Shown here: positions 4,211-24,183 of the stretch, piece by piece
Layout of the letters: every line of letters begins with the position of its first letter
Numbering within the stretch: position 1 is the stretch's first letter
NCBI GenBank assembly: GCA_018812345.1
Contig: JAHJDR010000176.1
Location: forward strand, 1-34,234
From: a bacterium
Lineage (GTDB): Bacteria; UBA10199; JADGCS01
DNA length: 34,234 bases
Reading direction: 5' to 3'
Made by a program: the position numbers and the translations under genes
The notes under the pieces: model-generated
The model's input: only the letters and a program-made list of their open reading frames with translations
The model's database searches: none
What the model was told of the DNA's origin: nothing

Positions 4211-6406
4211 ATGACTAAAATGAATAAAAGAGTAGCTTGTATTGGAGCTGGTATGACGCGTTTTGTGCGCCGCGCACAAGAGTCAACTGGCGAACTCGCT
4301 TCTTTAGCTGTGGAAATGGCGTTGAAAGATGCGGGACTCACCATGAACGATATTGATTCCGTGTGTTTGGGAACAGCCCCTGATGCCTTTGATGGTATTC
4401 ATATGAAAGGGGAAAATCTTATCGCTGGTAGTGGTGGAGCAAATAAACCTTATATGCGTCACTTTGTTGGTGGCGGAACCGGTGTGTTTTCACCGATTCA
4501 CGGTTGGATGCATGTGGCTTCTGGTCAGTTTAAAACCTGTTTGGTTGTGACTGAAGAAAAAATGAGCCCCTGTAATCCTCATCCAGCAGGTGCGTTTAAA
4601 ACTATTTTTGATCACACAACAGAACAACCATTAGATCTTACGTTGATCCATATTTTCGCCATTGAAATGGCGCGCTTCATGCATAAGTATGGTTATAAAG
4701 AAGAAGAGTTGGCATTGATTTCGGTTCAAAATAAACTCAATGCCATGGACCATCCCGCAGCTCAAATTGCGCAACAAATTACTGTTGATGATGTGATGAA
4801 TTCCAAACTCCTCTCATGGCCTGTTAAACGTCTTGATATTAGCCCCACATCAGATGCGGCAGTAGCCATTGTGTTATCTAATGAAGATGTCGCTAGAGCG
4901 CAAACGAAGCACCCTGTCTTTATTGAAGGTGTTGGTTATCGTTTAGACACAGCTTATTGGTGTACACGTGACTTAGCTTATCCTGATTATGTTGAATTAG
5001 CTGCCCGTGATGCCTATAAAATGGCTGGTATTACATCACCAGAACAAGAAATAGACATTTTCGAGCCTTATGATCCTTTTGATTATAAAGCCTTACATCA
5101 CATGAATGGTTTATTACTCGATAAGAGTGGTAAAAAAGTTAAAGAACTTCTGTTCAGTGGTTCGTTCGCACGTGATGGTTCACATCCTCTCTGCCCATCT
5201 GGTGGTGCTTTGGGTGTTGGTAATCCTATTGCGGCAACAGGGCTGATGAAAATTGCTGAGCTCTACTTCCAACTTTCTGGTCAAGCTGGTAAACGCCAGG
5301 TTAAAAAAGATTGTCGTCGTGGTGTGGCACAAGCTTGGGGTGATCTCATGCAAGTGGGAACTGTTGTTGTCATGGGTAATGACGAAGCTGTTCGTGGTCG
5401 TAAAACATTCTGGAGCGAAGCCGTACCAGAGCAATTGCCTGGTACAGCAATTAAGAATCCTCAAGATGTTCCTCATATGTCTTATACACCCGATCTCAGA
5501 TATTCATGGGATAATGGTTACGCCTTAACAACATACTTAGATGGTTTTAAAAATGGCAAAATCCGTGGTAGCAAATGTTCTTCATGCGGTCGCATGATGA
5601 TACCTGCTCGTTCTTTCTGTGAACTGTGTAACCTGAAGGCTGTTGAAGACTATTATGATCTTCCTGATTCAGGAACCATCGAAACATTCACACTCTCTCA
5701 TGTTGACTGGGATAGTTCTATGTTACCCGATGGACAGATCAATATGTTTGCGGTTATTTCCATTGATGGCGCGGCTAAAAAAATGGGTCTTGTACACCGT
5801 TTAGGTGATGTTGATCCTAAAGATGTCAAAATTGGTATGCGTGTAAAAGCTGTTTGGAAACCTGAAAATGAACGTGAAGGCAATGTCCTTGATCTGAAAT
5901 ATTTCAGACCGCTCAAAGATGGTGAAGCCATTGGAGAGCCCAAACGCATTAAACCCGTTGAAATGGATAGTACAACAGCTAAAGCCTTCCCAGGCCAGAT
6001 CCCCATGAGTTATATTTATACAGCGGGTATTGCTGGAGCTAAGTTCTATAATGACTTTGCACAAGGTAGGGTTTCGGGAACATGGTGTGAACACTGTCAA
6101 AAGGTTCATCTTCCAACAGCCTCTTTTTGTGAGTACAGTTTGAAAAAACTTGATCCCACAAAAGATGCTCGTGAGATTGATGCCAAGAGTGGTGTCATTG
6201 CCTCATACACTGTGGTACATGATGATCGTTCCGGTCACCAAATGGATAAGCCTCAAGTGGTTGTACAAATCAGCTATCCAGAAGCTGTGGGAACAATCTT
6301 TGGTAAACTAGAAACAAGTGATGTCACAGCTGTTAAGGCTGGTATGAACGTTGAGCTTATTCCATCAAGAACTGTTGGAGAAGGGTTGATGTTTAAGACT
6401 TGTTAA
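4211..6406 (+). CDS. Thiolase-fold (Ltp3-like) protein fused to two DUF35 Zn-ribbon/OB-fold domains
   Basis: N-terminal about 390 aa thiolase fold (SPTSDAAVA, EPYDPF, PSGGALGVGNPIAATG, QLSGQAGKRQV); then CSSC...FCELC plus OB-fold (DVKIGMRVKAVWKP) and CEHC...FCEYS plus OB-fold (VKAGMNVEL); GGAG RBS. Confidence 0.9.
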   Translation: MTKMNKRVACIGAGMTRFVRRAQESTGELASLAVEMALKDAGLTMNDIDSVCLGTAPDAFDGIHMKGENLIAGSGGANKPYMRHFVGGGTGVFSPIHGWMHVASGQFKTCLVVTEEKMSPCNPHPAGAFKTIFDHTTEQPLDLTLIHIFAIEMARFMHKYGYKEEELALISVQNKLNAMDHPAAQIAQQITVDDVMNSKLLSWPVKRLDISPTSDAAVAIVLSNEDVARAQTKHPVFIEGVGYRLDTAYWCTRDLAYPDYVELAARDAYKMAGITSPEQEIDIFEPYDPFDYKALHHMNGLLLDKSGKKVKELLFSGSFARDGSHPLCPSGGALGVGNPIAATGLMKIAELYFQLSGQAGKRQVKKDCRRGVAQAWGDLMQVGTVVVMGNDEAVRGRKTFWSEAVPEQLPGTAIKNPQDVPHMSYTPDLRYSWDNGYALTTYLDGFKNGKIRGSKCSSCGRMMIPARSFCELCNLKAVEDYYDLPDSGTIETFTLSHVDWDSSMLPDGQINMFAVISIDGAAKKMGLVHRLGDVDPKDVKIGMRVKAVWKPENEREGNVLDLKYFRPLKDGEAIGEPKRIKPVEMDSTTAKAFPGQIPMSYIYTAGIAGAKFYNDFAQGRVSGTWCEHCQKVHLPTASFCEYSLKKLDPTKDAREIDAKSGVIASYTVVHDDRSGHQMDKPQVVVQISYPEAVGTIFGKLETSDVTAVKAGMNVELIPSRTVGEGLMFKTC

Positions 6407-11566: not shown

Positions 11567-11630
11567 CGTACTGCGTATTGCGTACTGCGTTGTGCGTCGT
11601 GCGCTTGCCCCGTTTACGGGGTACTGCGTT
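11567..11630. repeat. CGTACTG-type heptamer array with an 18-bp hairpin insert (11604-11621)
   Basis: CGTACTG CGTATTG CGTACTG CGTTGTG CGTCGTG CG[CTTGCCCCGTTTACGGGG]TACTG CGTT. Confidence 0.8.
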
Positions 11631-11633
11631 TTT

Positions 11634-11712
11634 GAATAGAGAATAATCAATAACCAAGTCTTTTCTTTACTTGGATATTGGATATTGATTATTGGATATT
11701 GTTTATTGAAGT
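11634..11712. repeat. Inverted pair of TTGGATA-type heptamer arrays
   Basis: GAATAGA GAATAAT CAATAAC CAAGT on the left; TTGGATA TTGGATA TTGATTA TTGGATA TTGTTTA on the right, next to the ATG. Confidence 0.75.
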
Positions 11713-11719
11713 TACTTAT

Positions 11720-13036
11720 ATGAAAGATATACTTGGAAAAACATTTACCTGCCCGGGTTGTGGGCAAGAGCATACAATTGATACGAAAGAACTCATTTAT
11801 GGGGGTGATCTGTTTAATTCTTTAATAGAGAAATTGCGTCTTGAAAAGGCTATTAAGAATATTACTTTGATTGCTGATATCAGAACAATGACTCTTTTGG
11901 GAAAAGATGTTGCTAGTCACTTAGTAAAAGCGGGCTTCAGCATGAATACAGTGATTGTTCCTGATGTGAATGGTCACTCACCTCAATGTGATGATACAAC
12001 AAGGCTAAAACTGATCACTCAGATTCCTGATTGTGATGCTTTATTGGCAGTCGGTAGTGGTGTGATAAATGATCTCACAAAATGGATTGCTCATGAACGC
12101 AGCCTTCCTTACTTTGTGGTAGCCACAGCAGCATCCATGAATGGTTATGCCTCTGCTAATGTTGCAGCATCACTTAATGGTGTGAAGGTTTTGATTAGTG
12201 CTACAGCACCACAATATGTTTTTGCTTCTCCTGAAATTATTGAGCAAGCCCCTGCAGAGCTTACCAGTGCTGGTTTGGGTGATGCTTTAGCAAAACCTGT
12301 GTCTACTGCTGATTGGAAGTTGAATAATATTTTATTCAATGAGTATTTTTGTCCTTTTGCTGTTGAGATTGTGGAGCAATTTGAATCCCTTTATTTTGAT
12401 TGTCCAGAAAAAATTAATAAAAAAGATTCTCAAACCATGAAAGCTCTTTTTAATGCCTTGTGTTACTCTGGAATCGCCATGACAATAGCGGGCACAAGTG
12501 CTCCGGCTTCTGGTGGTGAACACTTACTGTCACATACACTAGATATGTTAGCTTATCGTGATGGCAAAGAGCATGACTTGCATGGCCGGCAAGTGGGTTT
12601 GGGCACTGTATTGTCAGCAGCTCTTTATGAAGACGTTTTTAAACAAGAAAACATAACGTGGCAAAAACTCCCACGCGCTATTGATGAAAACTTTTGGGGT
12701 TCGCTATCAGAGGAAGTGGGCAAGCATTATCAGGATAAACTTGTGAAAGCAGATCAGGCCTATGAGCTTCTTAAAGAGCCTGGTAAATGGGATGAAATCA
12801 AAAAAGAAATTCAACCATATTTGCGTGATGCGCAGAAGATAAGAAACTGTCTAAAGGAAGCGGGCGCTGCCTATCGCATTGAAGATATTTGTGACTTAAG
12901 TGAAGAAGAGTTTACCAAAACATGGCTAAGATCCCATCAAATGAGAGCACGGTTTACGATATTGGATTTGGCTTTTATGGCTGGGGTGTTACCACACCAC
13001 ATCTTCAACTTGATTAAGCACATTCGCATACCGTGA
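11720..13036 (+). CDS. sn-glycerol-1-phosphate dehydrogenase (EgsA/AraM family)
   Basis: AVGSGVINDLTK, ATAASMNGYAS, AGLGDALAK, SGGEHLLSH, LHGRQVG; N-terminal CPGCGQEH. The ORF-track extension from 11678 is translated repeat. Confidence 0.9.
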   Translation: MKDILGKTFTCPGCGQEHTIDTKELIYGGDLFNSLIEKLRLEKAIKNITLIADIRTMTLLGKDVASHLVKAGFSMNTVIVPDVNGHSPQCDDTTRLKLITQIPDCDALLAVGSGVINDLTKWIAHERSLPYFVVATAASMNGYASANVAASLNGVKVLISATAPQYVFASPEIIEQAPAELTSAGLGDALAKPVSTADWKLNNILFNEYFCPFAVEIVEQFESLYFDCPEKINKKDSQTMKALFNALCYSGIAMTIAGTSAPASGGEHLLSHTLDMLAYRDGKEHDLHGRQVGLGTVLSAALYEDVFKQENITWQKLPRAIDENFWGSLSEEVGKHYQDKLVKADQAYELLKEPGKWDEIKKEIQPYLRDAQKIRNCLKEAGAAYRIEDICDLSEEEFTKTWLRSHQMRARFTILDLAFMAGVLPHHIFNLIKHIRIP

Positions 13037-13513
13037 GGCTACGAAGAGGTAGTCTGATAGGCGGTTCAAATACATTACACATAAAGGATCTACCACATCC
13101 TTTTTCGCCAATGTCACACATTTGCGTTCTGCGCGACGGCATGTGGTGCGCGCCATGTGGAGTATGCTCGCCAGTTTTGAGCCACCAGGGAGTATGAAAT
13201 TTTTAAGAGGTGGCAATTTTTCTTCATGTTGATCAATAAAAGTTTCTAAAGCCTGGATATGTTTTTCACTAAGATCGATTTTATCTTTTTGTCCTTTAGA
13301 GAGAAGAGAACCCAAAGACATAAGGTCTTTTTGAATAGTAACTAATTGTTCCTTAAGCGTCTTATCATCTGTATGGCTCGCAGCAAGTCCCAATGTGCTA
13401 TTGAGTTCATCAACATCACCATAAGAATCAACGCGTAAATGATCTTTTTCAACTCGAGACCCATCACAAAGACCAGTAGTCCCATCATCACCAGTTTTAG
13501 TATAGATTTTCAT
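12989..13513 (-). CDS. pduO: ATP:cob(I)alamin adenosyltransferase, PduO/MMAB type
   Basis: MKIYTKTGDDGTT, YGDVDELNS, FILPGG, ARTTCRRAER, YLNRLSDYLF. Confidence 0.95.
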   Translation of the reverse strand: MKIYTKTGDDGTTGLCDGSRVEKDHLRVDSYGDVDELNSTLGLAASHTDDKTLKEQLVTIQKDLMSLGSLLSKGQKDKIDLSEKHIQALETFIDQHEEKLPPLKNFILPGGSKLASILHMARTTCRRAERKCVTLAKKDVVDPLCVMYLNRLSDYLFVASRYANVLNQVEDVVW

Positions 13514-13989
13514 AATTCATTTTCCTTCTTAATGGCCTCTAGTTCTTCAACAATGACAAGATCTCTATGACGACCTAAAGTTTTTTTTGCTTTTATGAGA
13601 TCTTCTAGAGAGATAACAAAACAACGTCCCCCAAACAATTCTATTTCCTGAGAATTTTTGAGAATATCATAGTAATCACCAACACCTTCAACTTGAGTGA
13701 TAATATCAAGCACTCCTAGATCTGTTTCTAAATGTAAGTTATTAAATTTTTCAACATTTTGGTTATCTCGTTGAAATTGTGGTTTTTCTTTTTGTTTTCT
13801 ATGTCTTGGATTAATTGGTTCTAATGTTTTTTGTAGTAATATAATTTGTTCGTTAGATAATGTGAGGCAAATATCAATATCACGTGTTGTTTGATTGCAT
13901 CCGTGTATGACAGCAGCAAAACCTCCTACAATGACAAAGTCGATAGGGCTATGAATAAGAAATTTAAGAAGGTCTTGAAGATCTTGCAT
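13510..13989 (-). CDS. Small nucleotidyltransferase-fold protein (putative toxin)
   Basis: FVIVGGFAAVIHG...TTRDIDI, ISLEDLIKAK, GRHRD motifs. Confidence 0.8.
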   Translation of the reverse strand: MQDLQDLLKFLIHSPIDFVIVGGFAAVIHGCNQTTRDIDICLTLSNEQIILLQKTLEPINPRHRKQKEKPQFQRDNQNVEKFNNLHLETDLGVLDIITQVEGVGDYYDILKNSQEIELFGGRCFVISLEDLIKAKKTLGRHRDLVIVEELEAIKKENEL

Positions 13990-14155
13990 TCTTTTGTCTA
14001 CCTTTGCCTTTTATAAGGTTGATACAATTGAGTGTTTTTTGGTGTTGAATAACTCGAGCTTCATAAGAAAGCTTAAGATTATCTCGAAGAAGCCAGATAT
14101 CAATTTCTGCATGTTCTTTGGATAGTATTGTATGATTCTTACTAGCTGATTTCAT
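13964..14155 (-). CDS. Small protein, putative partner/antitoxin of the nucleotidyltransferase
   Basis: 63 aa overlapping the NTase start; IDIWLLRDNLKLSYEARV motif; TATAAT 5 nt before the ATG. Confidence 0.6.
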   Translation of the reverse strand: MKSASKNHTILSKEHAEIDIWLLRDNLKLSYEARVIQHQKTLNCINLIKGKGRQKNARSSRPS

Positions 14156-14217
14156 TGATGATTATACTAGATTTTGCAGATAAAAAAAGCAACCATGAAA
14201 AGGCCTACCCATTTTTG

Positions 14218-16116
14218 TTAACTCTGCAAAGCAATGATCAGCTCATTGAGCTTTTTAACAAAACCTGCTGGGTCTTTGAGTTGACCACCGTCACTTAATA
14301 TGGCTTGATCATAGAGTACATCAGACCAGGCTTGAAATTGTTTTTCATCTTTTTCGTCAGCCAATTTCTTTAAAATCATATGATCAGGATTGATTTCTAG
14401 GATAGGTTTATCAGTATCCATTTTTTGACCAGCGGTTTCAAAGAGACGTTTTAAACTGGGATCTAAATCATTTTGATCCGAGACAATACACGCTGGAGAT
14501 GTTGTGAGTCTTTGTGATACTTTAACTTCTTTAACAGTATCTTTAAGGGCTGTGCTCAGTCTTTTTGTGAGCTCTTCGTGGGTTTTGTCTGCGATGCTGT
14601 CTTCTTTTTTGTCTTCGTTTTTGTTAGTGCCATCTTTATTTAATTCAATATCGCCCTTAGACACTGATTGCAGTTTTTTACCTTTGTATTCACTCAGATG
14701 TGTAACCATCCAATGGTCCACACGGTCAGACAGTAATAAAACTTCAATTTCTTTTTTTCTAAAAATTTCTAAAAGAGGTGAGTTTTTGCCTGACTCAAAA
14801 GTGTCTGCTGTGATGTAGTAAATTTTATCTTGGTTGGGTTTGAGGCGGAAGATATAATCATCTAAAGAGACTTCTTGAGTGTTTTTGTCATCAAAAGTTG
14901 AAGAGAAAAGAGAGAGCTTGGCAATGCGTTCTTTATTGGGAAAATCTTCAACAACACCTTCTTTGAAAATAGCACCAAACTCTTTCCAGAACTTCGCGTA
15001 GTTTTCCTTTTTGTTTTTGGCCATATCCTCAAGGTGATCGAGTGTCTTTTTGACGGCGGTATTTCTAATAGATGAGATGATTTGATTTTCCTGTAATATT
15101 TCTCTTGAGATATTAAGTGGTAGGTCATCAGAATCAATCACACCACGGATAAAACGCAAATAACGAGGCAGAAGTTTGTCTGATTCATCCATAATAAAAG
15201 TTCGTTTTACATAAAGTTTAACGCCAGTGGGATGCTCTTTTGTCCATAAATCAAAGGGAGCTTTTTCAGGGATGTAAAATAAAAATGAGTATTCCAAAGT
15301 GCCTTCCATGCGGGCATGGATGTGGGTAAGGGGATCACCAAAGTCATGTGCTACGGTTTTATAAAACTCTTTGTACTCTTCATTCTTAATACCTGCTTTT
15401 GGTCTTCTCCAAAGAGCGCTGGCTTTATTAACCGTTTCTTCTTTTGTTGTTTTTTGTTTGTTTTCATCTTCTTCTTCTACAGTCATTGTGATGGGAAGGG
15501 AGATGTGATCTGAGTATTTTCGAATGATTCCTTTTAAAGTCCAGGCATCGAGAAATTCATCTTCGCCTTCCCTGAGATGTAGGGTAACATCTGTTCCGCG
15601 ATCTTCTTTATCATTTTTTGCGATGGTGTAATCACCTTCACCAATTGATTCCCAAATAATTCCTTCAGCTTTGTCTTCGCCTGCCTTACGTGTTTTAAGA
15701 GTTACCTTGTCCGCAATAATAAACGAAGAATAAAAACCCACGCCAAATTGACCAATGAGGTTGGCATCTTTTTTGTTATCACCTGTCAAAGATTCAAAAA
15801 ACTCTTTTGTGCCAGATTTAGCAATCGTACCAATATTTTGTATAACCTCATCGTGAGTCATGCCAATACCATTATCAGAAATCGTGAGTGTACGGTTTTC
15901 TTTATCAAAACTTATGTGAATTTTGAGGTCACTTTTACCTTCATAGAGCTTTTCATCAGAAAGAGCTAAAAATCTGAGGCGATCACACGCATCTGATGCG
16001 TTTGAGATGAGTTCTCGTACAGAAATTTCTTTATTGCTGTAGAGAGAATTGATCATAAGTTTCAGTAATTGTTTAACTTCTGCTTGAAAGCCATGGGTTT
16101 GTTTATCTGTAGTCAT
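14218..16116 (-). CDS. htpG: Molecular chaperone HtpG (Hsp90)
   Basis: FQAEVKQLL, RELISNASDA, DNGIGM, IGQFGVGFYS, DLPLNISRE, LEINPDH. Confidence 0.98.
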   Translation of the reverse strand: MTTDKQTHGFQAEVKQLLKLMINSLYSNKEISVRELISNASDACDRLRFLALSDEKLYEGKSDLKIHISFDKENRTLTISDNGIGMTHDEVIQNIGTIAKSGTKEFFESLTGDNKKDANLIGQFGVGFYSSFIIADKVTLKTRKAGEDKAEGIIWESIGEGDYTIAKNDKEDRGTDVTLHLREGEDEFLDAWTLKGIIRKYSDHISLPITMTVEEEDENKQKTTKEETVNKASALWRRPKAGIKNEEYKEFYKTVAHDFGDPLTHIHARMEGTLEYSFLFYIPEKAPFDLWTKEHPTGVKLYVKRTFIMDESDKLLPRYLRFIRGVIDSDDLPLNISREILQENQIISSIRNTAVKKTLDHLEDMAKNKKENYAKFWKEFGAIFKEGVVEDFPNKERIAKLSLFSSTFDDKNTQEVSLDDYIFRLKPNQDKIYYITADTFESGKNSPLLEIFRKKEIEVLLLSDRVDHWMVTHLSEYKGKKLQSVSKGDIELNKDGTNKNEDKKEDSIADKTHEELTKRLSTALKDTVKEVKVSQRLTTSPACIVSDQNDLDPSLKRLFETAGQKMDTDKPILEINPDHMILKKLADEKDEKQFQAWSDVLYDQAILSDGGQLKDPAGFVKKLNELIIALQS

Positions 16117-16208
16117 TTTTTGTTCCTTTAAGTACGTAAGAGGTTAAGTTTGTTAGTTTGTTCATTAATAATATTGATTTAGTTATTGTCAAGGTTTTGA
16201 GTCACAAT

Positions 16209-16239
16209 ACGCTAGACGCTAGACGCTAGACGCTAGACG
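16209..16239. repeat. Perfect heptamer array (ACGCTAG)4+
   Basis: Four exact units plus ACG, abutting the hflX stop codon. Confidence 0.92.
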
Positions 16240-17511
16240 TTAAGTTCTAGTAAGTGTTGAATATTCCGCGTATTTATTTTTCCATTTCTGGGGTAGGTTG
16301 ACCGTTACCAGGGTGCCTTCTTCTATGTTTTCACTCTCCATGACTGAGCCATGGGTGTAGATATCATTTAGAATTTTGCCTTTATCATGAGGGATAAGAA
16401 GGTTCATAACATTATAATAATGCTTATTAAGAGTTGTCTCAATTTTAGTCTGAAAATCATCAAGTCCTATTTCCTTAAGGCTAGATATCCTGGAAAGTAA
16501 TTCTTTGCTCTCATCAAAATGGCTTTTTTCTTGTTCTTTATCTATCAAGTCAATTTTATTCATGACTTTGATAATGGGTTTGTTGCTGAGTCCGAGTTCT
16601 TTAAGAATTTGTTCTACGGTTTGTATTTGTTGTGTGCGATCAGGATGACTGGCATCAATAACATGGACCAAAACATCTGAGTCAGCAACTTCTTCAAAAG
16701 TTGATTTGAAAGATTCAATGAGTTGGTGGGGCAGGTTGCGTATAAAGCCAACAGTATCTGAAATAAGTATGATTTGTCCTGAAGGTAATCGCAGTCTCTT
16801 TGTTTTGGGGTCGAGAGTTGCAAAAAGCTTATCCTCAGCGAGTTCATGAGCCTTGAGGAGGCTATTAAACAGTGTTGATTTGCCGGCATTTGTATAGCCA
16901 ATGAGCGAAACAGTTGGGATGGGTACAGCTTGTCTTTTGTTGCGATGAATTTCACGGGCGCGTGTGACTCGTTCTAGATTTTTTTTGAGCATGACAATGC
17001 GTTCACGAGCACGACGCCTATCAACTTCTAGTTGTGTTTCACCAGGGCCTCTAAAGCCAATACCACCTTGTGATTTCTTTAAATGTGTCCACGCACCGAT
17101 GAGTCTTGGCAGCAGATACTGGTATTGTGCAAGTTCAACTTGCAGTTTACCTTCTTTAGAACGAGCGCGTTGCGCAAAAATGTCAAGAATCAGGCCTGTA
17201 CGATCCACGACACGTATTTGCCACGTTTTTTCTAAGTTTCTGTTTTGAACAGGTGTTAGGTCTGTATCAATGATAATAAGATCAGGTTTAATAATAGCAA
17301 AGCGTTCTTTGAGTTCTTCTACTTTACCTTTGCCTAAAAACGTGGCTGTGTTAAATTGGCGTATTTCAACAAAGATATCTCCCATCAATACAGCGCCGGC
17401 TGTTTGGGTGAGATTTTTAGCTTCATCAAAACTTTCTAACGCATCATATTTATGAGTTTTACGATGATGATAAATGCCAATGACGTAGGCTTGTTCTGTT
17501 GTTTTATTCAA
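16240..17511 (-). CDS. hflX: Ribosome rescue GTPase HflX
   Basis: DRTGLILDIF, EGKLQVELAQ, RGPGETQLE, GYTNAGKST, LFATLDP, DTVGF, NKID. Confidence 0.97.
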   Translation of the reverse strand: MNKTTEQAYVIGIYHHRKTHKYDALESFDEAKNLTQTAGAVLMGDIFVEIRQFNTATFLGKGKVEELKERFAIIKPDLIIIDTDLTPVQNRNLEKTWQIRVVDRTGLILDIFAQRARSKEGKLQVELAQYQYLLPRLIGAWTHLKKSQGGIGFRGPGETQLEVDRRRARERIVMLKKNLERVTRAREIHRNKRQAVPIPTVSLIGYTNAGKSTLFNSLLKAHELAEDKLFATLDPKTKRLRLPSGQIILISDTVGFIRNLPHQLIESFKSTFEEVADSDVLVHVIDASHPDRTQQIQTVEQILKELGLSNKPIIKVMNKIDLIDKEQEKSHFDESKELLSRISSLKEIGLDDFQTKIETTLNKHYYNVMNLLIPHDKGKILNDIYTHGSVMESENIEEGTLVTVNLPQKWKNKYAEYSTLTRT

Positions 17512-17537
17512 TTTGATTCCAATTTAAAATATATACT

Positions 17538-17589
17538 GTCTAGCGTCTATCGTCTATTGTCTATCGTTACGCTAGACGACAGACGATAG
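17538..17589. repeat. Head-to-head CGCTAGA-family heptamer arrays
   Basis: GTCTAGC GTCTATC GTCTATT GTCTATC GT / AC GCTAGAC GACAGAC GATAG. Confidence 0.85.
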
Positions 17590-17599
17590 CGCGCATTGA

Positions 17600-20500
17600 T
17601 TACATAAACCGAACAACCTTGTCATCAAATAACTGATTGATGTGATATTGCAAAGGTTCGCAGGCCATGGCCCTATATTGTGAGGGCAGTTCTACAATGG
17701 CGTCATAGTCATCTGTTTTGTTTGCGTGGATATAGATGCGACTTTGACCTTGGTATTGATGAAGTATTTCCATGGCTTTGGCAATGTTTTTAGATGTGAG
17801 TTGCTTAAGTGGGATGTGTAGATGAACACTGCGTGTTGTCTGTTTAAGTTTTTCACTTAAAAGAACAATGTTTTCCAAAAAAAGTTTTCCACCGGTCTCT
17901 GATCTTTCGACCCTACCAGAAATAACCAAAGGATGTTCCGATGTAATGAGGTCTTGGCATTTTTTTAAAGCTTTGGGGAAGACAATGACTTCAATGGGGC
18001 CTAGTAAATCTTCAAATTGCAAGAACGCCATTTTATCGTTCTTTTTCGTGAGGACGGAACGCATGCTTGTGATCACACCACCAATGGTAACTTCTGTCCC
18101 TGAGGGGAGTTGATGAATTTGTTTTGTGTTATGCGTGGTGAGCTTGTGTAAATTATCTTGGTAGACTTTTAAGGGATGGCCAGAAAAGTAAAATCCAAAG
18201 ACTTCTTTTTCAAAGGTCAGTTTCTCTTTTTCTGTCCAATCCATATCATTTTTGATTTCAAGTCCCACAGGTAATTGTTCATCTAAATCCAGTGATGCAA
18301 ATAAGTTGCTTTGTCCCAAAGCTTCATCGCGTTGTTTTTTTGCTGCGGCATTGACTGTTTGTTCTATGGCTGTAAATAAACCTTGGCGTGGCATTTTAAA
18401 ATCATCAAAAGCACCTGCTTTGATGAGAACATCAATAACCTTTTTTGTTACGCGCCTGAGATCAACTCTGGAACAAAAGTCATAAAAAGATTGAAAGGGA
18501 CCGTCTGTATTGCGTGTTTCAATAATGGATTCAATGGCCGCACCGCCAACGCCTTTTAAGGCAGCTAGTCCATAACGAATATGCTTTTCAGCGGCGACAG
18601 AAAACTCAGCTTCACTCTCATTAATATTAGGTGCCAACATTTTAATATCTGCTTTTTTGGCATCATCTATGAACAAGAGAATCTTATCTGTGTCTTCCAT
18701 TTCCGTCGACATTATTGCTGCAATGAATTCTGTTCTATGATGAGTTTTTAACCAGGAGGTTTGATAGGAGATGAGGGCATAGGCTGCTGAATGTGATTTG
18801 TTGAAACCATATTCGGCAAATTTGGCCATGAGATCAAAAATATCTTCTGCTATTTTGGGATCAATTTTATTTTTCTCCGCTCCAGATAAAAAACGTTTTT
18901 TCTGGGCTGCCATTTCTGAAATAATTTTCTTACCCATGGCGCGTCTTAACAGATCAGCTTCACCAAGAGTGTAGCTTGCCAAAATGGAAGCTATTTGCAT
19001 TACTTGTTCCTGGTAGACAATAACACCATAAGTGTCTTTGAGAATTTCATTTAAACTGGGATGCATGTAGGTGATGTCTTTTTTTCCTTTTTTTCGCTCA
19101 ATAAAGTCGTCTACCATGCCAGAGCCAAGAGGACCAGGGCGATACAAGGCAACAAGGGCAATAATATCTTCGAAACAGTTAGGTTGCAGGCGTTCCATAA
19201 GATCACGCATGCCTGCCGATTCGAGCTGGAACACACCAAAACCATCACCTTGTGATAAAGCATGAAAAACAGCTTCGTCATCCATGGGAATGGTCGTGAT
19301 GTCGATGATGAGATCTTTTGTTTTTTTAATATATTTTATGGCTTTATTAATGACGGTCAGTGTGCGTAGTCCCAAAAAGTCAAATTTAATGAGACCTATT
19401 TTTTCCGCACATTTCATATCGTATTGAACAACAACATCATTGTTAGAACCTTTGTACAAAGGTGCGTGCTCCCATAAAGGCTTATCTGTAATGATGACGC
19501 CAGCAGCATGTACAGAAGCATGTCTGTTAAGACCTTCTAGTCTCATGGAGACATCAAGAAGGCGATGATCTGTTTCATCGTTTTCATAACGTTTTTTAAG
19601 CTCTGGTTCTGTTGCAATAGCATCTTTAAGTTTTATGCCTAACGTGTTGGGAATGAGTTTTGCCAGTTTATCAACATAGTCATATTCTAAATCAAGAACA
19701 CGACCAACATCTCTGATAACAGCACGAGCTTTCATCTTACCAAAAGTAATGATTTGAGAGACATTGACATATTTCTCAGTGACATACTCAATCACAGCAG
19801 CACGACCTTCTTGGCAAAAATCAATATCAAAGTCAGGCATGCTAATACGTTCAGGATTCAAAAACCGTTCAAAAAGAAGATTGTAGGGGATGGGGTCTAT
19901 ATCTGTAATGCGTAATGAATAGGCGACCAGTGAACCGGCACCAGAACCACGTCCAGGACCAACAGGTATTTTCTGTTTTTTTGCCCAGTTAATGAAATCA
20001 GCAACAATAAGGAAGTAACCAGCAAACCCCATGGAGTTAATGACGCCAATTTCATGTTCTAAACGATTTTGATAAGCCTGCCAATCATCATCTGTCATGG
20101 AAGATAATTTTTGTATTTGATCCCAACGTTCTTTTAATCCAAGGCGTGCAAGGTCAGCAAGATAATCGTCGAGTGTTTTGTTTTCAGGTGTTTCATATTT
20201 TGGTAGATGATAAGTTCCGTATTCAAAATCAAAATTACATTTACTAGCAATATCGATTGTATTTTTTAGAGCTTCTTCACAGTGAGAGAAGTCTGCTTGC
20301 ATTTCATCTTGTGATTTAAAGTGATAGCGATCTGTTGAAAACTTGAGAGCGTCATAGGGTGAGGTGACAAAGGGTGCTATTTGAATAGAGCGTAAAATTT
20401 CAAAGGCTTCAGCATCATCAGGATTCATGTAGTGAATATTGTTTGAGGCGACGAGGGGCAGGCCTAAATCTTTCGCAAGCTGAATAAGAGTATCATTTGT

Positions 20501-21052
20501 TTCTGGTTGATTCGGCAGGCCATTGTTTTGCAATTCCAGGTAAAATCTTCCCGGAAAAAGTTGCGCGTAATTCTGTGCGGCTTTTTTGGCGTCATCATAA
20601 TTATCATTATAAATATGATGATTAATTTCTGAATTATAGCCAGATGATAGAGCTATCAAGCCATTTTGGTATTCACGCAGTAAGTTAAAATCAACACGGG
20701 GTTTATAATAAAAACCTTCGAAAAAAGATCGTGTGATGAGTCGTGATAGATTTTTGTAGCCGATTTCATTTTGAACCAGAAGAACCAGTTGCCAATAAAC
20801 ATCCTGACCGCGAACAAATTTTTTAATTGTATGATCATTGTAGGAAGGAATGTAGACTTCACAGCCCAAGATAGGCTTTATCCCTGATGCTGTGGCAGTA
20901 CTAAAAAACTCAACAGCGCCATAGAGATTGCCATAGTCTGTAATGGCAAGTGCAGGCATATTGTATTCTTTTGCTCTGCTAATAGCATCTTTTGTTCGAA
21001 CAGCACCATTGAGGAGGCTGTATTCTGTGTGTAGATGGAGATGGCAATACAT
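17600..21052 (-). CDS. dnaE: DNA polymerase III alpha subunit
   Basis: HLHLHTEYS, GPGRGSGAGS, SMPDFDIDF, KFDFLGL, YGFNKSH, OB-fold C-terminus. Start set at MYCHLH because the 10 extra codons are heptamer repeat. Confidence 0.98.
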   Translation of the reverse strand: MYCHLHLHTEYSLLNGAVRTKDAISRAKEYNMPALAITDYGNLYGAVEFFSTATASGIKPILGCEVYIPSYNDHTIKKFVRGQDVYWQLVLLVQNEIGYKNLSRLITRSFFEGFYYKPRVDFNLLREYQNGLIALSSGYNSEINHHIYNDNYDDAKKAAQNYAQLFPGRFYLELQNNGLPNQPETNDTLIQLAKDLGLPLVASNNIHYMNPDDAEAFEILRSIQIAPFVTSPYDALKFSTDRYHFKSQDEMQADFSHCEEALKNTIDIASKCNFDFEYGTYHLPKYETPENKTLDDYLADLARLGLKERWDQIQKLSSMTDDDWQAYQNRLEHEIGVINSMGFAGYFLIVADFINWAKKQKIPVGPGRGSGAGSLVAYSLRITDIDPIPYNLLFERFLNPERISMPDFDIDFCQEGRAAVIEYVTEKYVNVSQIITFGKMKARAVIRDVGRVLDLEYDYVDKLAKLIPNTLGIKLKDAIATEPELKKRYENDETDHRLLDVSMRLEGLNRHASVHAAGVIITDKPLWEHAPLYKGSNNDVVVQYDMKCAEKIGLIKFDFLGLRTLTVINKAIKYIKKTKDLIIDITTIPMDDEAVFHALSQGDGFGVFQLESAGMRDLMERLQPNCFEDIIALVALYRPGPLGSGMVDDFIERKKGKKDITYMHPSLNEILKDTYGVIVYQEQVMQIASILASYTLGEADLLRRAMGKKIISEMAAQKKRFLSGAEKNKIDPKIAEDIFDLMAKFAEYGFNKSHSAAYALISYQTSWLKTHHRTEFIAAIMSTEMEDTDKILLFIDDAKKADIKMLAPNINESEAEFSVAAEKHIRYGLAALKGVGGAAIESIIETRNTDGPFQSFYDFCSRVDLRRVTKKVIDVLIKAGAFDDFKMPRQGLFTAIEQTVNAAAKKQRDEALGQSNLFASLDLDEQLPVGLEIKNDMDWTEKEKLTFEKEVFGFYFSGHPLKVYQDNLHKLTTHNTKQIHQLPSGTEVTIGGVITSMRSVLTKKNDKMAFLQFEDLLGPIEVIVFPKALKKCQDLITSEHPLVISGRVERSETGGKLFLENIVLLSEKLKQTTRSVHLHIPLKQLTSKNIAKAMEILHQYQGQSRIYIHANKTDDYDAIVELPSQYRAMACEPLQYHINQLFDDKVVRFM

Positions 21053-21053
21053 T

Positions 21054-21090
21054 TTCGGTTTCCGTTGTCCGTTGTCCGTCATCCGTTATA
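21054..21090. repeat. Five-unit AACGG heptamer element (reverse orientation)
   Basis: TTCGGTT TCCGTTG TCCGTTG TCCGTCA TCCGTTA TA, 1 nt from the dnaE ATG. Confidence 0.85.
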
Positions 21091-21149
21091 ATAACTCAGA
21101 TTTGCAAGGCAATATATTTGTCTTTCAAAGGGGTTGTGTCAACGGTTAA

Positions 21150-21186
21150 TTCGGTTTCCGTTGACCGGTATCCGTAGTCCGTTATA
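21150..21186. repeat. Five-unit AACGG heptamer element (second copy)
   Basis: TTCGGTT TCCGTTG ACCGGTA TCCGTAG TCCGTTA TA. Confidence 0.8.
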
Positions 21187-21249
21187 TGACTGTATAATAA
21201 CTTGTGTATAATCAGATAAACTGTTAAGTGTCTAATTATATTAATCAAT

Positions 21250-21284
21250 TAACGATAACCGGAAAACGGTAACCTAAAAACGAG
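21250..21284. repeat. Degenerate AACGG heptamer array before pfkB
   Basis: TAACGAT AACCGGA AAACGGT AACCTAA AAACGAG running into the RBS. Confidence 0.65.
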
Positions 21285-21290
21285 GGAATT

Positions 21291-22208
21291 ATGAGTATTA
21301 CAGTTGTTGGCTCAGTGGCCTTAGATACAATTGAAACATTATTTGGAAAAATGGAACGTGGTTTAGGTGGTGCGGCAATGCATTTTTCTGTAGCTGCGAG
21401 TTTTTTCACAGATATTAACTTAATTGGCGTTGTAGGTGGTGATTTTCCTCAAGAACACATTGATTTCATGAAAAAGCGAAATATTGATCTCACTGGTTTG
21501 CAAGTAGAGATGGAAGGGAAAACGTTTCACTGGATTGGTCGCTATGATGAAGATGTGAATAGTGCGATAACACTCGAAACGCATCTCAATGTATTTGAGA
21601 CCTTTAAACCTGTTGTTCCCGATAAATACAAAAATCCTGATTTTTTGTTCTTAGCTAATATACATCCCGATCTACAATTGCATGTGATTGCTAATGCCGG
21701 AAAACCAAAAATGATAGCCATGGATACAATGAATCTGTGGATTGATATTACTAAAGATATACTCAAAAAAGTTATCCAAAAAGTAGATTTGGTTTGTATT
21801 AATGACCAAGAAGTAAAGATGCTGACAGGCAATAATAATCTTGTTTGTGGTGCCAGGGAAATTCAAAATATGGGGCCCAAAACCGTTATTGTGAAACGGG
21901 GTGAATATGGTGCTGTTCTATTTCATGAAGAAAAAATATTTGCCGCACCGGCATTGCCCATTGAAGAAGTGAAAGATCCTACAGGAGCTGGCGATACCTT
22001 TGCCGGTGGTATGATGGGTTATTTAGACCAATGTCCAGAAGTGACTTTTGACCATTTAAAGACAGCCATAATTTGTGGTTCTGTTATGGCGAGCTTTAAT
22101 GTTGAAGAGTTTGGTTGTAACCGTCTTAGAAAATTAACAAAGGATGATATCAGCAAGCGTTTTGCTGACTTTCAGGCCTTAGGCCAATTTGATAGTATGT
22201 CCTTATGA
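21291..22208 (+). CDS. PfkB-family carbohydrate kinase
   Basis: VVGSVALD, LGGAA, VKRGEYGA, DPTGAGDTFAGG. Confidence 0.95.
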   Translation: MSITVVGSVALDTIETLFGKMERGLGGAAMHFSVAASFFTDINLIGVVGGDFPQEHIDFMKKRNIDLTGLQVEMEGKTFHWIGRYDEDVNSAITLETHLNVFETFKPVVPDKYKNPDFLFLANIHPDLQLHVIANAGKPKMIAMDTMNLWIDITKDILKKVIQKVDLVCINDQEVKMLTGNNNLVCGAREIQNMGPKTVIVKRGEYGAVLFHEEKIFAAPALPIEEVKDPTGAGDTFAGGMMGYLDQCPEVTFDHLKTAIICGSVMASFNVEEFGCNRLRKLTKDDISKRFADFQALGQFDSMSL

Positions 22209-23554
22209 AAGTAAATCGTGCAGAAATGCTTTTACACAGTATCACGCGTTTGCTGAGTCGCAATGCGGATGCTAATATTCGCCGTATTTTGGCAAAATCT
22301 CATCCGTCAGAAATTGCTTCTGTTATTCGTCAGTTGCCTGATGATGATGGTGTTCACGTTATTAAGCAAATTCGAGATACGGTACGTGAACCTGAAACCT
22401 TTGTTGAGCTAGAAGGTAAATTTATTCAAACCTATTTAGATAATACAGACGATAAAAATCACATAGTAAAAGTCATGCAAGAGTTGCCTGATGATGAAGT
22501 GGCGAACCTTCTTGCCGAAGTTAATGGAGAAACAGCAGAAGAAATTTTATCGCTTATGAAGACATCCAAGCAAGAGGATGTGAGCGAGATTTTACAGTAT
22601 GGTGAAGATACTTGTGGCCGTATCATGGCCGTTAATATTCATAAATTTAACCAAAAACTGACTGCCAAAGAAGCGATTAGCATTATTCAAAACAGCAAGC
22701 ATGTGGAGAGTATTTATTATATTTATGTTGTTGATGATGATAATCATCTTGTGGGTGTGATTTCTTTGCGGCAATTGTTGCAGGTACAAGGCGATAGGGT
22801 TCTCAAAGACTTTATGGTGCGTGAATTGGTCAGTGTGAATGTTTATGAATCACAGGATAAAGCGGCCACATTTGTTGAAGACTATAATTTTGTCAGTTTG
22901 CCTGTCATCGATGATGATGGTGCTCTGATGGGCATGGTGACTGTTGATGATGTGATTGATTATATTCGTGAAGAAGCACAAGATGAAGTCTTACAAATGG
23001 CTGGTGTAGAAGCCGAAGCTATAGATGATTTTTCATATTTGCGCGCTTTTGGTTCACGTGTTTCATGGTATGGACTTCTTTTCATTGCAGGCGTTCTTTG
23101 TAGTGAAATTATTCTTTATTACTTTAAAGATGTTCCTCAGAAGCTTACTTATTTGTGTTTTGCTCCTTTAGTTTTGCGCTTATGTGGCAGTATGGCTACA
23201 CAAGGATTAACCTTTGTGACGCAAGGGTTGTTTGATGAAGATATTGAGCGCAGTCGCTCTATTAGAGCCTTTTGGGGGCAAATGTTAATCACATTGCTAG
23301 TGACTTTGCTTTTTGCTGGTGTGGTTTTTTGTTATGCTTTCTTTAGGTTTTTGGAACCAGCATGGACATCTTTTGGTATGAGCATTGGTATTTTAGTTGT
23401 TACGGTTATGTCAATATTTGTTGGTGTTATGTTACCCCTTATTTTTAACAAACTCAATATTGATCCTCAGATTGCCAGTTCGCGTGTTATTCACGTTCTC
23501 ATGGATGCCTTAAGCTTACTGATCTTTTTTGCCTTTTTATTTGGCTGGAGCTAA
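22205..23554 (+). CDS. mgtE: Magnesium transporter MgtE
   Basis: MgtE N-domain (HPSEIA), tandem CBS domains (YYIYVVDDDNHLVGVISLRQLL, LPVIDDDG...GMVTVDDV), five TM segments, DPQIAS and the conserved TM5 Asp. Confidence 0.92.
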   Translation: MKVNRAEMLLHSITRLLSRNADANIRRILAKSHPSEIASVIRQLPDDDGVHVIKQIRDTVREPETFVELEGKFIQTYLDNTDDKNHIVKVMQELPDDEVANLLAEVNGETAEEILSLMKTSKQEDVSEILQYGEDTCGRIMAVNIHKFNQKLTAKEAISIIQNSKHVESIYYIYVVDDDNHLVGVISLRQLLQVQGDRVLKDFMVRELVSVNVYESQDKAATFVEDYNFVSLPVIDDDGALMGMVTVDDVIDYIREEAQDEVLQMAGVEAEAIDDFSYLRAFGSRVSWYGLLFIAGVLCSEIILYYFKDVPQKLTYLCFAPLVLRLCGSMATQGLTFVTQGLFDEDIERSRSIRAFWGQMLITLLVTLLFAGVVFCYAFFRFLEPAWTSFGMSIGILVVTVMSIFVGVMLPLIFNKLNIDPQIASSRVIHVLMDALSLLIFFAFLFGWS

Positions 23555-23555
23555 G

Positions 23556-24179
23556 ATGGAACAACATAGCGGCATTATCCTTAAAAAATTATCTTACAGC
23601 GAAGCTGATGAGATTATCACAGTATTGTTTAAAGGCATTGGTATCAAACGTCTTTTTGTTCGCGGATCCCGTAAGTCAAAGAAGCGTTTTGGCGGTTTGA
23701 TTGACCATTTTGCTCATTTAAAATTCTTTTTTTCCTCTCACAATAAGGGACTAAGTTCTCTTACAAGTGTTGAAGAATTTCATGAAAGCATGCAACGTGA
23801 TTTATGGACCCTTGGTCCCAATTTTGCTTATGCTTCACTATTATCTGAATTTATCTGTGAGTTTACACCTGAAGATGGTGATGATCATGGACTTTATGAT
23901 CTTTGGTTATCTCTTTATAATGAATTAAAACAAAAAGAACTAACTCCCGACATGGCGACAAATTATTTTATCATGTTTTTAAGACATGTGGGTTATGCAC
24001 CAGACTTTATAGAGCACTTTCAAGAAGGCCATTCTCAGGCTGTAGTAGATAATGAGTGGATGTCTTTATTAACTGATTTGGTTAGTTTTGCAGAAAAGAT
24101 TATGCAGAAACCCTCCCGAGCCGCCCCTTTTTTTCTCTCAACGCTAGACCCCGAAAACGGGGCAGGCGATAGACGATAG
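23556..24179 (+). CDS. recO: DNA repair protein RecO
   Basis: GIILKKLSYSEADEIITV and RGSRKSKKRFGG N-terminal OB motifs; follows mgtE; short C-terminus without Zn finger. Confidence 0.88.
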   Translation: MEQHSGIILKKLSYSEADEIITVLFKGIGIKRLFVRGSRKSKKRFGGLIDHFAHLKFFFSSHNKGLSSLTSVEEFHESMQRDLWTLGPNFAYASLLSEFICEFTPEDGDDHGLYDLWLSLYNELKQKELTPDMATNYFIMFLRHVGYAPDFIEHFQEGHSQAVVDNEWMSLLTDLVSFAEKIMQKPSRAAPFFLSTLDPENGAGDRR

Positions 24180-24183
24180 ACGA
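24142..24183. repeat. CGATAGA heptamer array with an 18-bp hairpin insert (24149-24166)
   Basis: CGCTAGA [CCCCGAAAACGGGGCAGG] CGATAGA CGATAGA CGA, overlapping the recO 3' end. Confidence 0.82.

Follow-up and report, generated by a model that had tools for sequence, protein, structure and literature searches.

Two minute hairpin sequences in contig C9 of the JADGCS01 bacterium (34,234 nucleotides [nt]; hereafter the window, meaning the whole stretch of DNA that was analysed) belong to a dispersed sequence family that is real and far beyond chance, each being set exactly within an array of tandem 7-nt repeats (heptamers). The whole unit has been inserted 3' of a G, usually of YG, in one polarity and with a target duplication of at most one base, and it has multiplied recently in this one species. 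We put the probability at roughly 55% that both sequences are copies of an ultra-small, non-autonomous insertion module of the kind known as small dispersed repeats (SDR), moved in trans by a putative strand-specific enzyme acting on single-stranded DNA (ssDNA). The host (G000 in our genome labels) is an uncultured groundwater bacterium whose assembly of 3.06 Mb in 435 contigs (C1-C435) is 97% complete and has a G+C content of 39%.

The module, which we call family 1, measures 18-20 nt; a foot of four bases (CYTG) precedes a stem of 5 bp (CCCCG/CGGGG) that closes a T-rich loop of 4-6 nt. As an earlier note on this DNA had described, the two copies in the window (Table 1) are identical at 16 of 18 positions, lie 12.5 kb apart and occupy arrays of different families, GTNNTGC-type for the first and TCTATCG/TCTAGCG for the second, and removing either one from the sequence restores the 7-nt register (TCGTGCG^TACTGCG and TCTATCG^TCTAGCG, respectively, with the caret at the junction). 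Folding as ssDNA gave -4.9 kcal/mol (z -2.7) for the first copy, with the structure ....(((((....))))), and -5.8 kcal/mol (z -3.1) for the second, each with a 5-bp stem, a 4-nt loop and four unpaired 5' bases, and the pattern describing them matched twice in the window versus no match in 100 shuffles. The accompanying claim that insertion leaves no target duplication holds at the exact junctions of the empty paralogues described below, except that a single G may have been duplicated: because G is the last base both of the left flank and of the element, the cut position can be read as G^T or as C^G. A further mini-hairpin, placed by the same note at 2-20, survived in part. Positions 1-20 belong to a genuine dispersed family with 21 copies (family 2), but their fold (-1.4 kcal/mol, z -0.14) is no better than that of shuffles, so calling them a mini-hairpin is not justified.

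Neither the number of copies nor their site preference is limited to this pair, for the earlier note's pattern gave 38 strict matches in the whole genome and G occupies position -1 in 66 of the 70 core copies defined here. A looser pattern gave 69 matches versus none with a reversed-pattern control, and a pairing-based scan, which required only a YYTG foot and a paired xCCCG stem, recovered 81 copies, 70 of them ("core" copies) with a CCTG, CTTG or TCTG foot. Core copies have loops of 3-6 nt, mostly TTTG (37 copies) and TTTTA (13), and are spread over 54 of the 435 contigs; since contigs with copies share the G+C content of the rest of the genome (0.392 versus 0.387), the copies are not contamination. 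Fifty-three of the 70 lie outside crude open reading frames (ORFs) and the other 17 overlap one. Eleven neighbour pairs within 300 nt of each other were counted among the 81 copies, six direct and five inverted, but a single palindromic locus, read on each strand in turn, accounts for two of the inverted ones, and only three inverted pairs are real.

The target sites of the core copies share a short motif and a strict phase. Before the almost invariant G stands a C in 52 copies and a T in 14 (Y at position -2 in 66 of 70); after the element, position +1 is T in 56 and C follows at +2 in 55. The left and right flanking heptamers match at five or more of seven positions in 51 of 70 core copies, and all copies have a single polarity relative to T-N4-YG heptamers. 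Thirty of the 70 touch a period-7 array called by Tandem Repeats Finder (TRF), where 1.8% would be expected; 60 adjoin at least one in-phase T-N4-YG unit and ten have such a unit on neither side. The host units fall into at least five families (TCTAGCG/TCTATCG, TCGCTCG, TCGTGCG/TACTGCG, TTCAGTG and TCTCACG), and there are non-array sites too. Overall, the targets are T-N4-YG array junctions, the junction between 5' arm and loop of other small hairpins, and the loop of the module itself. The commonest arrangement on the 3' side is exactly one heptamer (36 of 70 core copies), and the 5' side carries 0-8 units. Period-7 arrays, which are intergenic, number 1105 in this genome and account for 1.1% of its bases. 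Arrays of TCKMKCG with at least three units gave 179 matches here, four in G002, two in G010 and none in the other 28 relatives; since these arrays are nearly confined to this species, arrays and module have expanded together in its lineage. Placement of the element at the apex of long inverted heptamer arms was also considered and rejected, as exact inverted matches of 8 nt between the flanks were found at 4 of 70 copies versus 6 of 66 controls.

Insertion itself is documented by a dispersed host repeat, AAAGGTG-ACGTTC-CACTTT, that exists in G000 in one empty and two filled states (Table 1). Filled and empty versions match exactly over 23-32 nt with no duplication, and in the hairpin predicted for the empty repeat both fill sites fall on the first base of the loop, directly beyond the 5' arm. 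Family 2 fills the same site in C66, C417 and C216. In C420, one module is inserted at CCCCG^TTTG inside another copy, again just past the 5' arm, and nested copies also occur in other genomes (loci L010, L027, L142 and L166). A 15-mer search gave 18 occurrences of the host repeat (AAAGGTG-ACGTTC-CACTTTCGGACACAAAAGGTACC…), including one in C417, as a target of families 1 and 2, and C216 has four tandem units made of the first 15 bases of this repeat. Two further families of modules interrupt arrays as well. Family 2 comprises about 21 copies of …CCCTTCGACAAGCTCAGGG+TCTAACGA, the sequence at 1-20 included, most of them in a TCTAG…TCTAACGACG frame. Family 3, of which G000 has 12 copies, is a module of 20 nt, CCGCGCCTGCCTCTGGCAGG, built on a 6-bp stem (CCTGCC/GGCAGG). 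It interrupts arrays at GCG^TCTAGCG (C81, C116, C121, C239, C241, C289 and C379); 11 of the 12 lie at YCG^TCTAKCG-type junctions in TCTAGCG, TCTATCG or TCTGTCG arrays, and the copy in C76 lies outside an array. Two tandem duplicates of module plus heptamer, in C241 and C379, belong to family 3.

Recent multiplication in one species is apparent from the distribution of the T-loop form among the 93 species genomes of our phylum set, all of one class: 44 copies in G000, one in its congener G001, one in each of five other genomes and none in the remaining 86. Target statistics, empty paralogues, nested copies and this species-specific burst together largely bear out the earlier note's idea of an ultra-small mobile family in heptamer arrays, inserted with a strong preference for one phase of the heptamers. 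Within the same order, related hairpins whose loops start with C were found 17 times in G007 and five times in G006, in larger composite repeats and not in heptamer arrays. At the G007 loci (L117-L137), the hairpin with a CTTG foot is one block of a composite of about 60 nt, GGACACCCTGAG-[hairpin]-TCCCGCTACGCGG-TGATCGAAGGGTC; a second composite type is bounded by CCCCCTCC…GGAGGGGG, and small modules are thus nested in larger hairpins.

Beyond the phylum, the exact 18-mer was searched for in species-representative genomes, and among the matches listed most were singletons, many of them encoding CPVCG, with multiple matches in three 'Bacteroidetes bacterium' metagenome-assembled genomes (MAGs; G031-33) and nested copies in one Ignavibacteria MAG. 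The 18-mer can also encode Cys-Pro-Val-Cys-Gly, and among loci L008-L111 and L189-L202 many of the singletons in unrelated genomes, like the viral matches described below, are zinc-finger codons and not the element. Module matches in G031-33 numbered 40, 46 and 16, compared with 0-1 in controls. These Bacteroidota MAGs are of a different lineage from G000, because they hold 54-127 tail domains of the type IX secretion system and G000 holds none. The module there is hosted by GTCATTTCGAC…GGAGGG^AGAAATCCC-type repeats and follows G in 27 of 30 retrieved loci. The idea that heptamer arrays serve as landing pads therefore has to be widened: the target statistics uphold a preference for one phase of the heptamers, but the module also enters a non-heptamer hairpin repeat in G000 and other repeats in the Bacteroidota MAGs. 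Viral contigs gave 14 single matches, eight of which are one phage gene motif (CPVCGGKDRFRFDN), and we rejected a phage vector because all 14 are look-alikes coding for the CPVCG zinc finger. A BLAST search of a plasmid collection with the element and its flanks as query gave three weak matches, at chance level.

Population data were taken from five groundwater and biofilm metagenome runs that cover most of the region, in the form of assembled Logan contigs (from which rare variants are dropped). Contigs of runs X2, X3 and X5 span the copy at 24149-24166 unchanged, and a contig of X2 does so for the copy at 11604-11621. One contig of run X5 has 28 extra bases, equal to four heptamers, behind 11581, so that samples differ in the length of the array but share the element.

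Table 1. Modules, host arrays and states of the dispersed host repeat. Positions are those of the window unless a contig is named.
Feature	Position	Strand	Basis
Family-1 module, first copy, CTTGCCCCGTTTACGGGG: foot CTTG, stem CCCCG/CGGGG, loop TTTA	11604-11621	+	Sequence read and DNA fold
Family-1 module, second copy, CCTGCCCCGTTTTCGGGG: foot CCTG, stem CCCCG/CGGGG, loop TTTT	24149-24166	-	Sequence read and DNA fold
Host heptamer array (T-N4-CG), 5' side of first copy: TACTGCG, TATTGCG, TACTGCG, TTGTGCG, TCGTGCG	11567-11603	+	TRF, period 7 at 11567-11597
Single heptamer TACTGCG, 3' side of first copy, in register with left array	11622-11628	+	Sequence
Host heptamers TCTATCG (two), 5' side of second copy	24167-24183	-	TRF, period 7, unit CGATAGA
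Single heptamer TCTAGCG, 3' side of second copy	24142-24148	-	Sequence
TCTAGCG array without insert, 4.4 units, potential target	16209-16239	-	TRF
GTCTATC array without insert, 4.3 units	17538-17567	+	TRF
Family-2 module …GCCCTTCGACAAGCTCAGGG, then TCTAACGACG and TCTAGCG; truncated by contig start	1-37	+	Sequence
Host repeat, empty state	C241, C216, C251, C255, C283	n/a	Sequence comparison
Host repeat, module after GGTG, one strand	C66, twice	n/a	Sequence comparison
Host repeat, module after AAGTG, other strand	C311, C54, C300, C420	n/a	Sequence comparison

The second copy in the window is among those that overlap an ORF. A recO-like ORF (23529-24179, +) continues across both module and heptamers and terminates at a stop codon within the array, and since its RecO homology covers residues 13-160 of 216 and its stop lies inside the array, its last residues are encoded by repeat DNA. 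At the other edge of the window, the family-2 module at 1-37 recurs at the end of contig C49 (minus strand, near position 4719), with the same bases after it (…tctaacgacgtctagcgtgttgtttgct); this repeat is the probable cause of a break in the assembly, and C49 and the window may abut.

How such a short unit might move can be sketched from its targets. The places it enters are ones where DNA would be transiently single-stranded, slipped heptamers or hairpin loops; the foot and hairpin would be recognised and the module moved in trans by a putative strand-specific enzyme that nicks and rejoins ssDNA in connection with replication. This mover need not be a tyrosine transposase associated with repetitive extragenic palindromic (REP) sequences (RAYT) and may lie outside the binned contigs. 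The orientation of the copies provides modest evidence that hints at a strand-specific, replication-linked step: the element strand is the strand of negative GC skew for 48 of 70 copies, or 43 of 62 loci after merging neighbours (p = 0.003), and same-type arrays without the element split 99 to 82.

Several observations count against this reading. The skew result is soft, because the contigs are short and skew is only a proxy for the direction of replication. No unoccupied allele of either copy was found in the assembled contigs of the metagenome runs, several of which end inside the element, and same-genus genomes align to the window in coding parts only, at 67-70% DNA identity, which leaves no orthologous intergenic site to compare. 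No enzyme linked to the element was found among Y1_Tnp, reverse transcriptase and small GIY-YIG genes or on viral contigs. Three family-1 neighbour pairs (C37, C277 and C383) are tandem duplications of element plus heptamer and not transposition. The outer stem pair of the hairpin is T-G in 11 and T-A in two of 103 loosely matched copies in G000; in G007 it is T-A in 12, C-G in four, C-A in one and T-G in none (n = 17), and in the G031-33 loci all six copies with a stem T pair it with A; such a switch between C-G and T-A fits selection on the hairpin, but only this one pair varies, and a single amplified double-mutant subfamily could give the same pattern. Lastly, the share of the CTTG/T-stem subfamily differs between array types, with a CTTG foot in 7 of 10 copies in GTGCG-type arrays versus 8 of 25 in TCTAGCG-type arrays (Fisher p = 0.06).

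The alternatives differ in who, if anyone, moves the hairpin. The earlier note had likened the architecture to REP sequences handled by HUH nucleases and had proposed to look for a Y1/RAYT gene flanked by these hairpins; in its full form, this would make the module a true REP family, cut and pasted by the bacterium's own Y1 HUH proteins, whether RAYT or IS200-like. We regard this as unlikely. The layout of foot plus GC hairpin and the insertion without duplication fit the analogy, the GC-skew bias fits a single-strand mechanism, and Y1_Tnp genes are present in G000 (six matches above the Pfam cut-off and one below), their translations containing an HYH-type motif and an RYIHxNP tyrosine region, which we take to be the HUH motif and the catalytic motif of these proteins. 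However, none of the seven genes shares a contig with a copy of the module, and their flanks hold GGGGTCA-type repeats instead; in G031-33, all 15 Y1_Tnp matches are more than 1 kb from any listed copy, with a minimum distance of 2.6 kb. Moreover, Y1_Tnp is present in 26 of 31 relatives irrespective of the element, with seven matches in G002, which has no element, and there is no obvious Y1 subfamily common to G000 and G031-33, the proteins being 220-344 aa long and scoring 19-59 bits in the former and classical forms of about 147-181 aa with up to 141 bits in the latter. Three real inverted neighbour pairs among 81 copies also mean that there is no REPIN doublet organisation. A cognate gene and inverted doublets, two defining features of REP families, were looked for and not found, the resemblance being one of architecture only, and in these gene surveys an HUH/RAYT attribution is unsupported. 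Y1_Tnp genes with a long C-terminal extension (about 320-340 aa) lie between short direct repeats containing GGGGTCA at C117:413-1366, C14:1-323, C120:17296-18288 and C15:20233-20646, those in C117 and C14 being near-identical copies, and these bracketed genes look like a separate small mobile gene family. A small GIY-YIG nuclease was likewise considered as mover: such genes are found in all seven genomes searched, with four matches in G000, but no family-1 copy shares a contig with any of the four, whose flanking hairpins are of other kinds, and we rejected this candidate. Small GIY-YIG genes at C404:2832-3041 and C117:3027-3239 stand just 3' of tRNA genes and have perfect hairpins of their own, for example GTACCTGTAAACGGTAC. 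Somewhat more credible than a REP family, though still doubtful, is that the module spreads horizontally among unrelated phyla (the candidate phylum, Bacteroidota and Ignavibacteria), entering the 5'-arm/loop junction of extruded hairpins or slipped heptamers by way of a single-strand nick-and-join enzyme other than a RAYT, perhaps a general one of the host or one borne on a plasmid.

Dedicated mobility may also be dispensed with altogether, if a few ancestral insertions spread passively among arrays by unequal exchange, gene conversion and tandem duplication. The 28 bases gained in run X5, the tandem units of element plus heptamer in families 1 and 3 and the partial tracking of array family by subfamilies all agree with such a process, and conversion between arrays would keep polarity and phase fixed; we nevertheless consider it improbable, because the consensus form is found in five heptamer families with nothing but T…YG in common, because a non-heptamer repeat with exact empty paralogues has been filled on both strands, and because copies lie inside the module's own loop, in other host repeats of unrelated phyla and, for 10 of 70, away from any T-N4-YG unit on either side. 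We give even less credence to a selected cis-element (a protein-binding site, a hairpin for transcript ending or processing, or a replication or priming signal) that recurs by recruitment. Such a role would accord with the location of 53 of 70 copies outside crude ORFs and with a hairpin kept through C-G to T-A switches, and a conserved binding partner could explain an identical 18-mer in distant phyla. Yet the four arrangements of element relative to flanking gene direction are found 18, 16, 13 and 13 times, and this lack of orientation bias disfavours a role at the transcript level; no T-run follows the hairpin in either copy of the window and no Rfam family matched in the window, and a transcript-linked role was rejected on the grounds of orientation and Rfam. 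Nested copies and copies within other repeats are hard to reconcile with function, and an invader fits better than a housekeeping signal, since the sister species has almost no copies of the family and 86 of 93 phylum genomes have none. Least probable in our view is that an RNA copy is reverse-transcribed and then inserted, a route that Elhai and colleagues reportedly suggested for SDR elements in 2008. The G-T (G-U) intermediates at the outer pair, the commonest variant in G000, fit tolerance at the RNA level, but the polarity of the element is independent of neighbouring gene direction, the reverse transcriptase matches in G000 are one broken match with three stops and a fragment covering profile positions 111-205, and G033, with 16 copies, has no match at E <= 1e-5.

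An SDR-type module moved in trans, the reading we favour, would have consequences beyond this genome. To our knowledge, no smaller sequences than SDR-type elements have been proposed to be mobile, and we are aware of no answer since 2008 to the question of how a sequence of 18-27 nt gets copied to new sites. The present case would extend the phenomenon beyond cyanobacteria and adds a sharper target rule, a species-specific burst and the sharing of the same 18-mer across phyla. The rule is simple, namely insertion after G, either where two heptamers meet or where the 5' arm of a hairpin passes into its loop, and the copy numbers form a natural contrast, with 44-70 in one species, one in its congener and the same module in unrelated phyla. 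Taken together, the phylum extension, the contrast in copy number and the target rule bring the enzyme within reach of comparative genomics and of oligonucleotide assays. The modules and arrays also matter in practice, since assemblies fall apart into contigs where they occur and ORFs such as recO acquire altered 3' ends. If horizontal spread is true, no smaller mobile DNA than this 18-nt hairpin may be known to pass between lineages; the heptamer arrays and the modules would then be parts of a single repeat system that expands as one, and a comparison of element-rich genomes with their element-free sisters could reveal the enzyme.

Among known systems, miniature inverted-repeat transposable elements exceed 100 bp and have terminal inverted repeats and target duplications. 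The module resembles them in being non-autonomous and multi-copy, but it is a single hairpin on a 4-nt foot, without terminal inverted repeats or any duplication seen. Short tandemly repeated repetitive sequences are heptamer arrays of filamentous cyanobacteria; the host arrays of G000 are similar to them as intergenic period-7 tandem repeats, whereas here the arrays are the target and not the element, and TCKMKCG units are almost restricted to the species. In the IS200/IS605 family, for which the TnpA of IS608 is the model, insertion takes place 3' of a short sequence without duplication, the ends are footed hairpins and orientation is linked to the replication strand. The module likewise inserts after YG (66 of 70) with no duplication at empty paralogues, a 1-base duplication of G being possible, and is a hairpin with few foot bases whose orientation is biased with respect to GC skew; it differs in having one hairpin in place of two distinct subterminal ones, no tnpA or other coding capacity and only two conserved target bases (YG), and the direction of its skew can be compared with the IS608 rule only if the active strand is known. 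The likeness to REP sequences and REPINs, as these are characterised in PMC3116915 (Bertels & Rainey 2011), lies in a short hairpin, rich in GC and mostly outside genes, that has a conserved tetranucleotide at its 5' end (CYTG here), is present in many copies and is inserted without visible target duplication. The module departs from them in that it has no hairpin-flanked RAYT gene, occurs as singletons and not as inverted doublets, is about half the size of a REP and targets repeat arrays and hairpin loops.

The closest known system is that of the SDR elements of Nostocaceae, and the module would be of this kind in a non-cyanobacterial phylum, an assignment made from descriptions of SDR elements. 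Elhai and colleagues are said to have described SDR elements in 2008 as repeats of 21-27 nt, several of them predicted hairpins, that often lie within tandem heptamers or small transposons and form nested copies, the hosts of SDR1-8 reportedly being Nostoc punctiforme and related heterocystous cyanobacteria. The host of the module lies outside Cyanobacteriota, and a photosystem reaction-centre gene was detected in none of the 93 phylum genomes, the Synechococcus positive control being found. In the 354-kb N. punctiforme plasmid pNPUN01, the family-1 module has no copies, and an array-interruption scan of 36 period-7 arrays found no recurrent insert. SDR5 is described as a 21-nt element of unknown function in a few heterocystous cyanobacteria (PMC13756078), compared with 18-20 nt for the module, and its insertion is placed between bases 3 and 4 of GCGATCGC (HIP1), that is, after GCG (PMC4390886); in a study of HIP1-rich cyanobacteria, SDR elements were reported as confined to Nostocaceae (PMC5861425). 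The literature searched, which covered few subscription journals, contained no report of modules of this kind outside cyanobacteria. What the module has in common with the SDR elements is its small size and dispersal in many copies (18-20 nt; 38 strict and 70 core copies), its frequent embedding in tandem heptamers, the nesting of copies within copies, and filled and empty versions whose precise junction points to a defined insertion step.

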